Positions 32,601 through 38,600 of a stretch of 64,000 nt of DNA are shown piece by piece. The first letter of the stretch is position 1. Every line of letters begins with the position of its first letter. Below the pieces are notes generated by a model. The model saw nothing but the letters and a program-made list of their open reading frames with translations. It did not search any database and was not told the origin of the DNA. This DNA comes from Octopus vulgaris (Eukaryota), in contig OX597835.1 in assembly GCA_951406725.2 (NCBI GenBank), positions 10,416,001 through 10,480,000 on the forward strand, given 5' to 3'. Made by a program: the position numbers and the translations under genes.

Positions 32601-35600
32601 ACAAACAACACATCAAAAGTCTTTGGACACCACCAAAGAAAGTGAGTAGATCTCAGTTGGAAGAAATGGTGATGTAGACAGTCCATCTGTGCCCACTGCA
32701 ACATTTGACATCATGGGAATGTAGGAATGAAGAAGATAAAAAGATTGTTAAGCACATCAAATTTCTAAATTTCATAAAATTACTAATGAGTTACTAATTC
32801 ACCTACAATATGTTAATGACTACAAAAACAAAACCTCGTTTTTTTTTTATTAACGATTGAAAAGAAAAAAAAAAGATATATTTTGTGTAGAAGATAAGGG
32901 TTAATTGAAATGAGAATAAAAGAATTAAAGGCACATACTCTTGGATAGCAGATGGTGCTACCTCTTCTAGATTTTCCATGCTCCACTCCTCTAAAAACTC
33001 CAAGATTGGAGAGGGTTGAGAGCCGACAGAAATATAGGCCATCAGGGCCAAGTTCTTCACAAGTCCTACAGCTGCGCCCTGAATCGAAAAAAAAAAGTAC
33101 AAGAAATTTAATTAATAAGGGATTATCTTAATTGTTATAACATTATATGTATCTCACCAGTTTCAAATTAATAAACCTGATCTATTCTCATTAAGGCAAG
33201 AATAAAACAATTAAAAAAATGTCGAAACAGTAATGGAAATTCAATAAAACCTACACTAAATCTATGAATGTGTAGAAAAAATATTGGTTCATATTAAATA
33301 CTACGAAAGACACAAGTTAAGAAAATAACCCAACCTGAAGTAAAAGATAAGAAAAAAAATTGTTATTGATCTTTCATTAAAAACTCAAAAGAGATTTTTG
33401 TTAGTCATTCCGTAATTATTTCACAAGTCAGTCAACTAATGATGGAGTGAGTCCCATAATGTTCCATTTCATAGAGACGCTTGAAGTTTTGTCTCTAAAG
33501 TTGGAACCCTGTACAGTGGTGGAAAGTTCTTAATTCTGGGGCTGCCTGCTGGAGCCTATGCGGTATTTAAAGGAAAAAATTTGACAAGACAGTCAGTCAC
33601 CGGCTGACACTCGCTGACGATACATCGAAGAGGCCAGGGAACAGAAGAAAGAAGACATGCACCCAACACCAGAGCTGAAGACACCTCCGAAAGGGAGGGC
33701 CCCGCCACGTCAAAACGGTAGAGGAGGAGGGGCCGAAACCGGACGTGGTTCCTCCTGATGATGTCTTGAGCTAACCGGATCCTATAAAGGAGCTGTTGTG
33801 GTAGCAGACCACGAAACACGGTTGCAATTCCCCCCTCGAGTCATTTAATATTACTTCTTGCATCTGTAATTTCTGATCCATTAACGAAGTTGTTGAGGTT
33901 GATTTGCACAACACAAAAAGGCCCCTTTCAAAGGAGTGGTGAGTGAGTCAGGGCTACAGTTGGTTGCTTTATATTTCACTATGGAAACACAGCCAGAAAT
34001 ATATACATTCATCACTCTCCACGAAATATCCATGGGAGAATATAAACTAGGCACTTCAAAACAATTTAAATATTTGCACATTGCTGAGTTTGGGACCCTT
34101 AATGAATTAGGGGTTTGGCACGGATACTGCGTAAAGTGCAAAATCAATATGCAACATGTCAAATAAGGGAATCAGCTAGAAAGAGCAGCCAAAATTCCTT
34201 CAAATCACACACCAACACTTTATTTTAAAATGAGGCACATAAAAAGCACCATCCGTCCGTGGCCGTTTGCCAGCTCCGACTGGCACCTGTGTGGGTGGCA
34301 CGTAAAAAGCACCCACTACACTCATGGAGTGGTTGGCGTTAGGAAGGGCATCCAGCCGTAGAAACTCTGCCAGATCAGACTGGGCCTGATGCAGCCTTCT
34401 GGCTTCACAGACTCCAGTTGAACCGTCCAACCCATGCTAGTATGGAAAGCGGATGCTAAATGATGATGATGATGATGATAAGGCACACTCTTAATGATAG
34501 AGAGTTGTTTGATCAGGGTTGACCTGGGGTTAAATAGCAAGTCAAATATGGAATGAAAAAAGAAAATAAATAAATAAATATAAAAATAAACTTACTTCTG
34601 GAGTTTCAGCAGGACAGATCATACCCCACAATGTATTGTGAAGTTGTCGAGGACGAGCCAGTTTGCCATCACGGCCAATTGGGGAATTTAAACGACGAAG
34701 ATGGGACAATGTAGAAGCGAATGTGAGCCGATTTAATACCTGAAAGGAGAAAGATTTGGTAAATACAGAGTTTGGAAGCAAAACCTCTAGGACTACCAAG
34801 AAAACAATCATTAAGGAGACTCACAAATTCATAGATTAAATAGGTTAGGTAAGCATAAGGGCAGAATATTCTCAGCTTTTAAGCACTGGTGCTGGAGCCA
34901 CCTAAAAAGCGCCCTCTACACTGGAAAGTGGTTGGCACAGGGGAGGGCATTCCAGCTGTAGAAACCATACCAAAACATACAACACATATATATACACATA
35001 TATACATACATAAATAACAATTAAGCAGAAAAGAGGTATGGTATTCAGTGCTTTATAGAACATACGCATGTTTCAGCAAAGCACTGCAATAATTACACAA
35101 CAGTTATAGAAACATTATGCAATTTTTCACCCCCACCCACCTCATCAGTGTCCAGCAATAAATGATTATAGTAACACTTACCCTCTGAACAAGAACGCCA
35201 ATAGTGGTCCTGCTAAATCCAATCTTTTAAGCACTGGTGCTGGAGCCACCTAAAAAGCACCCACTACACTGGAAAGTGGTTGGCACAGAGGAGGGCATTC
35301 CAGCTGTAGAAACCAAACCAAAACAGACAATGGAACCTGGTGTGGCTCCTGGCCCTGCCAGCTCCTGCCAAACCGTCCAACCCATGCCAGTTATATAACT
35401 TAGCAGCGTGACAAATAGAGATCTCTTAAAATTACGTACTGGGATCAACGTGATTAAATTTCTTCAAGGCAGTGCCCCAGCATGGCCACTAACTACCTGC
35501 TCACACTAATTAACAACAGAAGTGACATTGTGGTTGGTTTACCTGAGAGACTCCAGCCCTTGCTTGATGGGCTTTCTTCTGATCTCCCCAATTGCCTGTG

Positions 35601-38600
35601 GCCAAAGAATATTTCAGGCCGTCTGTGATGATTCTCGTCTTAATGGCAAGTTCCAGGTTGAAATCTTTTCCTCGGTCAATAAACTTTTGAGCATAAATGC
35701 GAACCTCTTTCATCAGATTCCGGAACAAACTGGAATTGTACAAATATGAATATCAAATGAATGTAAGGATTCATAGTTAGAAACCAAAGGATAGAGGTTT
35801 CTAAGTATGTATACATACATATATAAATAACGATTAGGCAGAAAAGAGGTATGGTATTCAGTGCTTTATAGAACATACACATGTTTCAGCAAAGCACTGC
35901 AATAATTACACAACAGTTATAGAAACATTATGCAATTTTCCACCCCCACCCACCTCATCAGTGTCCTGCAAAGAAATGATTATAATAACACTTACCCTCT
36001 GAACAAGAATGCCAATAGTGGTCCTGCTAGATCCAATCTTTTGTTACCATAGTGATCTCTGTCATCTACTTCTCTGCGACCACAAGCAGCTAAAAGCAGC
36101 CTATGTACCATGTACCTGAAAAATATGAGGGTGTGTATAGACAACACAGATATATTTATATATACAGTAATCCTTTGACTACTGTGGGTGTTATGTTCCA
36201 AAACCTGCCACAATAGGTGAAAATCCCTGAAGTAGAAACAGTACTGTACTGTATATATTTTTTCATTATTTTTATAATTTGTATATATTTGTTTTACTAT
36301 TTTTATAATTTATATATTTTTTTATTATTATTTCTATAATTTATATATATTTTATTATTATTTTTATATATTTAAACTTTTATAAACTCTCCATGCACTG
36401 TTAGGAGTTTCGTTTTCCCTACAGTATGCGCGATTCTTTTGTTTACTCGTCTAATGTACACTTTTTTTTTTTTTTTTTTTTTTTGTACTTGTTTCAGTCA
36501 TTTGACTGCGGCCATGCTGGAGCACCGCCTTTTAGAGTGGTGAAAGAGTACAGCAGGGATCACCACCTCCTGCCGGAGCCTCGTGGAGCTTTTAGGTGTT
36601 TTTTTCGCTCAATAAACACACACAACGCCCGGTCTGGGAATCGAAACCGCGATCCTCCGACCGCAAGTCCGCTGCCCTAACCACTGGGCCATTGCGCCTC
36701 CACACTATGTATTTTCTTTTAATATATTTTAATTAATGTGTTGCACAGTGCAGTATTGTACTGTATTTTTATTTATCAATTTTTAGGCGTGAGAATGCTT
36801 ATCTTATCACAGAAATAACTAAAATCTAATAAAACATAAAATACCGATCAGCTGCAGAAACCTGTGATATAAATTCACATAGACACAGGAGTGGCTGTGT
36901 GGTAAGTAGCTTGCTTACCAACCACATGGTTCCGGGTTCAGTCTCACTGTGTGGCATCTTGAGCAAGTGTCTTCTACTATAAGCCTCGGGCTTACCAAAG
37001 CCTTGTGAGTGGATTTGGTAGACGGAAACTAAAAGAAGCCCGTCGTATATATATATGTGTGTGTGTGTGTGTGTATGTATGTCTGTGATTGTTCCCCCAA
37101 CATTGCTTGACAACCAATGTTGGTATGTTTGCGTCCCTGTAACTTAGCAGTTTGGCAAAAAAGACCAATAGAATAAGTACTAGGCTTACAAAGAATAAGT
37201 CCTGGGGTTGATTTGCTTGACTAAAAGCAGTGCTCCAGCATGGCCACTAAAGAGTCAGATAGTTTTATGGTCAATCCAGCCATGTTCAGTCCTACAATGT
37301 CATACTTCATACTAAAAGTAAACAATCACATCATTGAAATCTCAAATCTACAAGATAATGCTCAATTAATTCAAAACAATTTCAAAAAGCATTAATTATC
37401 ACATCACCATTCAAGGCCCATTTTCCATGCTGGCAGGAGTTGGACACCAGAGGACTGCACCAAGCTCTAAGGACTGTTTTGGTGTGGTTTCTACAGCTGA
37501 ATGCTAAAGGGTTAAAGAGGGTTACTTACCCCAAAAAGTAGGCTTTCTTTGTCTCACAGAAATCACTAACACCAACGTGAGGTAACATTTCTTTCTGCAA
37601 GATTTCTCGGGCATATTTGATACGTTTCTCTTTTGTGACACCAGGACGAGCTCCACGTGAACCAATGAAATTCAGAGCAATATTCTGTTCTTGAATCACA
37701 AAAGCTTCGTCTAATGATGGTTTTACCTACATAAAGAAAAGGGGGCAAAAAAAATATTCATGAAAAATACAATTCTATATATTTTATAAAATCAAAAATA
37801 ATCAAAAAAGAAAAGTAGCTCAAAGGAAATGACTCAAGTAAAACAATGGCAATAATTAAGATAAGTGAAAGATTGAGTATCCAATGATGTCAGCAAAAAT
37901 TCTGAAATAAATTAGATTACCTACTTAGTGGGAGAAGGATGTAGCAGAGAGTATTAATTAAATACTGTCAAAAGATAATCTTAAGAATTTAGCAGTTTCA
38001 CAAAGTTAATTCACATGCCTAAAAGGAAATCAGATCTTTGAAGTAAAATCAAGCTCAGGTCTGTCCGATCAAATCAGCATGAGAAAAAAGAGTTATGAAG
38101 GTTTTGAACCAGAAGGGGTTTGTATATAATTTCCGTAACTATTTTAAAACATTTTTTTTTTTTTATAATGAGCTAAGGGAAATAATCCAAGACATAAAAC
38201 AAAGGGAGATAACTAAATGTTATAAGGCATTTTCTCTCGCAATCTACTGATCCTGCCAACAACGACCAACAGCAACAGCAGTGGAGGCGCAATGGCCCAG
38301 TGGTTAGGTCAGCGGACTCGCAGTTGGAGGATCACGGTTTCGATTCCCAGGCCGGGCGTTGTGTGTGCTTATTGAGCGAAAACACCTAAAGCTCCACGAG
38401 GCTCCGGCAGGGGGTGGTGGTGACCCCTGTTGTACTCTTTTGCTCCAACTTTCTTTCACTCTTTCTTCCCGTTTTTTGTCCCCGACTTCCAACGCAACCG
38501 CTGAGCCTGGATGTGCATTCATCCATACATCGATGCTCTTGGTGTCGGGGGTTGACCTGCTTTCTCTTCTCAAAACGTATTTGCAGACAAAATACTGCTA

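Follow-up and report, generated by a model that had tools for sequence, protein, structure and literature searches.

The amniote intronic hammerhead ribozymes HH9 and HH10 are single-locus elements that form stable folds and are active as monomers. A ribozyme motif on the sense strand of a cellular gene's intron is also known from CPEB3, where it is HDV-like (HDV, hepatitis delta virus; PMC10274809). The closest described system is the minimal hammerhead ribozyme (min-HHR) of the pseudo-long terminal repeats (pseudo-LTRs) of metazoan Penelope-like retroelements (Cervera and de la Pena 2014, PMC4209133). It has the type-I layout, the full core, a 5-bp helix I, a long helix II and a short palindromic helix III that needs a dimer, and it occurs mostly in lone truncated copies, with opposite-strand pairs close by. 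Related to it are the animal non-LTR retrozymes, non-coding type-I hammerhead repeats described as non-autonomous derivatives of Penelope-like elements (bioRxiv 10.64898/2026.07.22.740005). Here we describe two such hammerhead motifs in introns 8 and 9 of RPB2, the gene for the second subunit of RNA polymerase II (Pol II), in a 64,000-nt stretch of Octopus vulgaris DNA (GCA_951406725.2, contig OX597835.1, positions 10,416,001 to 10,480,000, forward strand; hereafter the window). A reading made from the letters of the window, the sequence-only reading, had proposed that the tandem pair could form a dimeric ribozyme controlling RPB2, and had added that both might be inactive relics. The caveat turns out to be the better reading, as stem II is degraded, helix III is decayed and a private 9-bp hairpin is predicted to compete with the active form. 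With a probability of about 0.85 on sequence comparison and folding models, both copies would be inert relics of a dispersed, Penelope-type hammerhead repeat and of its local duplicate.

RPB2 lies on the minus strand of the window, and both motifs are on its pre-mRNA (sense) strand. The first is in intron 8 (35730..35995, minus strand, 266 nt), occupies 35871..35966 and reads GGACA-CUGAUGA-(67 nt)-GAAA-CAUGUG-UA-UGUUC. Stem I is formed by 35966-35962 with 35875-35871, CUGAUGA is at 35961-35955, the stem II region at 35954-35888 (67 nt), GAAA at 35887-35884 and the helix III 8-mer at 35884-35877; the predicted cut is at 35876/35875, and intron, strand and cut agree with those first proposed. 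Intron 9 (34740..35542, minus strand) contains copy 2 of the repeat (35021..35163, minus strand), with its core at 35148-35142, GAAA at 35074-35071 and a predicted cut at 35063/35062. It had been correctly placed 813 nt downstream of the first, but the helix III loop, AUGU in copy 1, is AUGC in copy 2, owing to a difference at 35066. Both copies contain CUGANGA, GAAA and NUH in type-I order. Descriptor and covariance-model searches had been suggested as checks. A loose hammerhead descriptor found exactly two sites in the window, which are the two RPB2 copies, and 100 dinucleotide shuffles of the window gave a mean of 0.03 loose hits and no strict hit. An Rfam scan of 33000-38000, on the other hand, returned no hammerhead match at E values up to 10; the long stem II and minimal helix III may be the cause. 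A short-gap hammerhead pattern gave 3 hits in the window, near chance (9 of 100 shuffles), and misses the true motif because the stem II region is 67 nt long.

The term fold, which had been applied to both motifs, calls for qualification: when the RNA is folded together with its natural 3' flank, the free ensemble is 21-25 kcal/mol more stable than the hammerhead fold, by nearest-neighbour estimates that serve, here and below, for comparison only. The core can be closed in the RPB2 copies by a stem I of 5-6 bp and a stem II base of 5-6 bp, mostly wobble pairs. The 5' strand of stem II is 5 nt longer and G-rich, and only 2 of 10 pairs are Watson-Crick in the family register. Each copy can instead form a rival hairpin that sequesters the 3' strand of stem II, with GAAA, helix III and the cut site lying inside it. 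In copy 1 this is a 9-bp hairpin at 35859..35899 (minus strand; 35899-35891 with 35867-35859), and in copy 2 it pairs 35086-35078 with 35054-35046. Within a 1011-nt RNA containing both copies, its pair probability is 0.96-0.98 over the two copies and 0.97-0.98 in copy 1, and stems I and II are near zero. It is three adjacent changes that turn 35899-35891 into a perfect 9-bp complement of 35867-35859, and this 5' arm occurs in none of 69 other copies. In nascent prefixes, the probability of stem I falls from 2% at 35870 to 0.01% at 35860, and copy 1 is predicted to be locked in the rival hairpin about 800 nt before copy 2 is transcribed. The opening cost of the active form is 22.5 and 19.5 kcal/mol for the RPB2 copies, against a family median of 14.2 and a value of 4.2 for the column majority. 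The two thus rank 47 and 41 of 54 scorable copies for ease of folding, among the worst. For the RPB2 pair as a dimer the net cost is +37 kcal/mol, compared with +0.8 to +4.0 for four other hammerheads of the genome and +22.5 for a fifth. The helix III strands of the two copies pair with one mismatch (A-C) and two wobbles, at -4.7 kcal/mol, and two changes that only copy 2 has, at 35154 and 35066, destabilise stem I and helix III.

So pronounced a trap invites the suggestion that it was selected: the private inverted-repeat change, likely made by template-switch correction of a near-palindrome, would have been favoured for trapping a ribozyme then capable of cutting an essential gene's transcript. 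The perfect complement made by three neighbouring changes, absent from the 69 other copies compared, and the poor folding rank of both RPB2 copies would agree with this, as would the under-representation of retrozymes in Xenopus introns (bioRxiv 10.64898/2026.07.22.740005). We nevertheless regard it as unlikely. There would have been little to select against before the duplication, since a lone minimal hammerhead gave no cleavage in vitro (PMC4209133; review PMC6765202), and the private change, being present in both copies, predates the duplication. Moreover, 7 other scored copies fold worse than copy 1.

That the RPB2 copies are relics is also indicated by their relatives. The motifs are not specific to RPB2, because the element carrying the hammerhead is a 145-nt repeat dispersed through the genome. 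When the genome was searched with copy 1, 40 of 193 candidates were scored and contained 48 matches, namely the 2 RPB2 copies and 46 others, which are 75-88% identical and lie on most chromosomes in either orientation. Further genome searches with an upstream and a downstream piece gave 14 and 40 matches, respectively; 5 of 39 tail hits coincided with loci of the first search, a rough overlap that suggests a family of a few hundred copies. A family profile matched 66 of 74 non-redundant loci gathered by these searches, and a model built without the RPB2 copies matched copy 1 (35833..35975, minus strand) at E 2e-37. The sequence upstream that is common to the copies varies from 0 to about 540 nt, giving ragged 5' ends. 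The 3' end lies about 40 nt past the cut site in 28 of the 66 hits, and in 34 a longer tail continues for a further 120 nt or more, counts made with duplicated loci kept in and on a set enriched for tails. The longer tails often run into simple repeats; in RPB2 copy 1, all that is left is the hammerhead plus some 40 nt on its 3' side, after which comes a (TA/TG) simple repeat. At 21 of the 66 loci copies are present on both strands, and repeats on the same strand only were seen at none. A miniature inverted-repeat transposable element with terminal inverted repeats was considered and rejected, as the 5' ends are ragged and the inverted partner is a whole second copy. At one locus (L036:1494-2225), six family pieces alternate in direct and inverted orientation. 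Two other loci (L026 and L029) on contig C5 lie 290 kb from each other, share 95% identity over some 1.5 kb and are likely a segmental duplication.

By column majority, stem I of the family is 5 bp long and stem II 10 bp, 6 of the latter pairs being Watson-Crick; the stem II region measures 62-67 nt, distal hairpin included. The median distance between copies is 26%, and the nearest relative of the RPB2 copies is 15% diverged. Stem and core statistics were taken over 64 copies, with six that had been picked by core pattern excluded. Stems I and II are 82% paired, compared with 34-60% for slid partners, and one stem I pair varies between G-C and A-U (nominal p 0.03 among 16 pairs). The core is intact in 31 of the 64 copies, so that an intact core does not single out RPB2. 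Pair 10.1-11.1 is G-U in 44 copies, A-U in 9 and G-C in 1, and the best register has no unpaired base between 9 and 10.1. The weak G-U at the base of stem II, on which the caveat of inactive relics had been based, is therefore a family trait and not damage peculiar to the RPB2 copies. Helix III appears to be decaying in the manner of CpG dinucleotides, to judge from the letters found in 50 copies: its first dinucleotide is CA in 28, TG in 12 and CG in 6, and its second is TG in 26, CG in 15 and CA in 6. The mixture of CG, CA and TG is confined to helix III and two other dinucleotides. CG-rich forms of helix III are fully self-complementary (-9.5 to -10.3 kcal/mol), and of 60 copies, 11 have an 8-mer that pairs with itself throughout (-9 kcal/mol or better). 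The RPB2 palindromes are partly decayed, at -6.0 and -4.5 kcal/mol. CpG decay was also tried as the source of U11.1 and stem I, and was discarded since those columns are nearly fixed (TG in 44 of 50). Nor did a conserved 3' splice site immediately ahead of stem I, of the kind that Drosophila Penelope has, find support, AG being present in 14 of 64 copies and looking like CpG decay.

The sequence-only reading had assigned the motifs to the minimal type-I hammerheads of the Penelope or retrozyme kind, and the layout, the palindromic helix III and the dispersed, truncated and inverted copies all bear this out. The element resembles a Penelope-like pseudo-LTR hammerhead in its workings and most probably derives from one. 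Penelope-like elements are described as having opposite-strand hammerheads 100-700 bp apart with many lone truncated copies (PMC4209133, PMC8557442), min-HHRs with a long helix II and a short palindromic helix III (PMC4209133), partner copies that are inverted and 5'-truncated, as well as tails (PMC8557442), and 3' ends of two kinds (PMC11167929). A study of octopus repeats reports a Penelope-like expansion at distance 0.2 (PMC13282606), which would fit the divergence of this family. Relative to the published min-HHR (PMC4209133), the octopus family differs in its 62-67 nt stem II region with a distal hairpin, in the prevailing G-U rather than G-C at 10.1-11.1, in lacking the extra base between 9 and 10.1, and in that no parent frame was found in the family loci searched. 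Retrozymes are set apart by forming head-to-tail tandem arrays that yield a circular RNA, whereas the RPB2 pair goes back to a single duplication that took in host exon sequence, and none of the 66 family loci has same-strand repeats only. The CPEB3 ribozyme, like HH9 and HH10, differs in being single-locus and, with a stable fold, active as a monomer, whereas the RPB2 motif is one of many decayed repeat copies, has a disfavoured active fold and shows no evidence of deep conservation.

The search for a parent frame bears on a second alternative, that the family is a non-autonomous, hammerhead-bearing short element of some other source, the RPB2 copies still being inert. No linked reverse transcriptase (RT) or GIY-YIG frame was found in 84 family-search loci and the window (about 1.5 kb flanks, a sample of an old family). 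Conversely, from 6136 GIY-YIG candidates in the genome 150 were scored, and none of 45 loci surrounding GIY-YIG frames matched the family, the best E values being 0.76 and 0.062. A tblastn search of the family loci with 27 GIY-YIG-bearing peptides found nothing, and longer peptides gave low-complexity hits only. One locus (L058) has a 240-residue open stretch that continues the family tail and has no Pfam hit; by eye, we take it to resemble an unrelated transposase piece. Other hammerheads occur near GIY-YIG frames at 3 loci. This proximity is not evidence, because similar ones were found at 6 loci in 301 kb of control sequence and none was found at 6 of 7 further loci checked. Against another source stand the agreement with Penelope-like anatomy, seen in the inverted pairs, the ragged 5' ends, the palindromic 6-nt helix III and the two alternative 3' ends, and the richness of the genome in elements with RT and GIY-YIG, and we give such an origin a slim chance. 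In the course of this search, a young and abundant element with a 781-residue RT and GIY-YIG frame was seen (L132:2245-4587, plus strand; also L133 and L135). Its RT falls just under the Pfam cut-off, and it has a second long frame of about 360 residues 5' and, 3', tandem repeats with CCAAT- and CRE-like words. The hammerhead descriptor had no hit on the fetched stretches of this element.

Copy 2 is a real local duplication, as had been proposed, and hardly an assembly artefact. The duplicated segment (34998..35228, minus strand) corresponds to 36042-35811, with 12 differences in 232 columns, and comprises 47 nt from the end of exon 8, the GT donor of that exon and 185 nt from the start of intron 8. 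Because the unit includes host exon sequence, copy 2 is a DNA-level accident rather than a retroelement tandem. One junction has a 4-nt A-run microhomology at 35228-35224, and a simple repeat is found at the other. Flanking the segment is a direct repeat, 107 nt long, which is a fragment of an unrelated and highly abundant repetitive element (35224..35330 and 34876..34982, both minus strand, with 5 differences in 107). Related organisms and independent reads were examined in 4 of 24 listed runs (X2, X4, X7 and X9), all of them contigs of DNA type. The 35228/35224 junction is crossed by record 3 of run X2, which comes from a different study carrying the same organism label and has 39 letters on one side and 61 on the other; in the four runs, no contig bridges the 34998/34982 junction or spans the whole stretch. 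In X4, one contig stops at 35228 and another starts at 36013, which is 30 nt within the 36042 boundary. In X9, one contig stops 30 nt within 34876, a second spans 35224-35328, and two versions cover 35036-35191, one with no differences and one with 4 differences and 6 gap letters. These contig breaks suggest that organisms B and D share the duplication. The contigs of X7 run through both boundaries and their intron 8 carries the element, and there is a weak hint that organism C is without the duplication. Its intron 8 agrees with copy 2 at 36030, 35985, 35973 and 35940. Within the element, relatives have indels of 3 nt (run X4) and of 6 gap letters (one X9 record). A further observation is that the X4 contig over 35083-35228 has about twice the neighbouring depth and a 3-nt deletion, as if both copies were identical in organism B, where gene conversion between the duplicates is possible. 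The duplicate also places a strong copy of the exon 8 donor, at 35182/35181, in intron 9 (35228-35181), with no matching acceptor seen upstream, and this is a possible cryptic donor.

We envisage the following history. A short hammerhead-bearing piece, likely the end of a Penelope-like retroelement whose source would have used its hammerhead as a dimer through a self-complementary helix III, was inserted in RPB2 intron 8. The insertion is probably old, given the 15% divergence of the nearest relative. Copy 1 would later have been copied with part of exon 8 into intron 9, either by a template switch in replication or repair, or through an 819-nt tandem duplication whose second exon 9 was subsequently lost. 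The nascent RNA is predicted to settle into the rival hairpin by about 10-15 nt past the cut site; introns 8 and 9 would accordingly be spliced normally and no 813-nt RNA would be released.

Several observations weigh against an inert relic of a Penelope-type repeat. Both RPB2 copies retain all 11 core positions and the NUH site, and the insertion and the duplication are kept in close relatives, although the latter is no test of deep conservation because these are only 2-3% diverged (6-9 letters in 271-382). The folding estimates contain no Mg2+, core tertiary contacts or proteins. In the whole set, the core columns are more conserved than other columns matched for base (0.915 vs 0.856, p 0.00025), and so they are in the 24 copies that came from searches without a core query (0.952 vs 0.840), a pattern unlike that expected of pure decay from a single source. 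They are not better kept in the 40 copies found by RPB2 query (0.893 vs 0.882, p 0.31), and the retention fits selection on several source subfamilies, or alignment anchoring. Covariation of the stems over the 64 copies is not above that of shuffles, 388 of 2000 and 1602 of 2000 of which reach the observed value. Finally, Penelope membership rests on anatomy, because no RT or GIY-YIG frame has been tied to the family.

The first two of these points also count for a domesticated dimeric ribozyme, in which the copies would pair through helix III and cut the nascent RPB2 transcript in competition with splicing, perhaps releasing an 813-nt RNA with exon 9. Both cores and cut triplets are intact on the sense strand, the duplication is real and appears common to two related organisms, tandem copies in principle allow cleavage as a dimer (PMC4209133), and a splicing-tuned intronic ribozyme has been reported for CPEB3 (PMC10274809). 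However, about half of the family copies keep the core anyway, and this pair is one of many decayed copies that folds worse than most. Its net folding cost, the near-complete predicted occupancy of the rival hairpin in both copies, the predicted locking of copy 1 long before copy 2 exists, the A-C mismatch in the cross pairing and the private changes of copy 2 all argue against a working dimer. Even intact min-HHR dimers have low activity and are slow in vitro (PMC4209133; review PMC6765202), and for an anole Penelope-like element no ends at the site were seen by RNA-seq (PMC11167929). We therefore consider this control of RPB2 very improbable. The same very low odds attach to a version in which a hammerhead dead as a monomer became a tandem pair, a chaperone or ADAR opens the rival hairpin, and the dimer cuts. 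If true, dimer cleavage would make production of the second Pol II subunit depend on the speed of splicing and elongation, and would represent the birth, within a species complex, of a ribozyme-based feedback on the polymerase itself. The odds are negligible for an intronic box C/D small nucleolar RNA (snoRNA; with UGAUGA for box C and, at 35862-35859, CUGA for box D) and for an assembly artefact in copy 2, as the box-like words and good folding of the region (z -2.9, 1 of 200 shuffles) are outweighed by the lack of an Rfam snoRNA match near gathering score, the dispersal of the repeat in either orientation and the loss of the second box word in most copies, and the artefact by the junction bridged in another study and the 12 differences between copies.

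Exons 8 to 10 (36115-35996, 35729-35543 and 34739-34596) join as one open frame, and three of the four exon-containing pieces tested matched Pfam RNA_pol_Rpb2_2 and _3. Exon 8 (35996..36115, minus strand, 120 nt) has AG/GT ends and matches PF04561; exon 9 (35543..35729, minus strand, 187 nt) has no Pfam match alone. The numbering of exons and introns as 8 and 9 assumes that just one exon lies 5' of the internal exon near 48467. Exons 8 and 9 are flanked, in introns 7 and 9, by pieces of common repeats in inverted orientation (35301-35342 with 37458-37499, and 35461-35487 with 36510-36536), an ordinary, ribozyme-free route to back-spliced circles.

At least 5 further hammerhead families with a 6-nt palindromic helix III were seen in the genome, several of them in inverted pairs and with low predicted folding cost. 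Examples are L134:3281-3375, L117:6116-6200 and L042:2211-2262 (all plus strand, each with an inverted copy), L047:1848-1920 (plus strand), and those at L120, L005 and L057. Judged by predicted folding, these are better candidates for active ribozymes than the RPB2 pair. A literature search on octopus with Penelope or hammerhead ribozyme, with most subscription journals outside its scope, found no paper on this family or locus; the supplements of PMC4209133 and PMC8557442 may hold related cephalopod motifs.

Read as relics, the RPB2 copies add an octopus example, with an unusually long stem II and a family-wide G-U pair, to the class of hammerheads described in 2014, and the source genome holds several such families. 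They also counsel caution in genome scans, for an intact core on the sense strand of an intron is common among relics (31 of 64 in this family). If the pair did cleave, it would be a young and testable case of ribozyme domestication at an essential gene, and of far greater significance.

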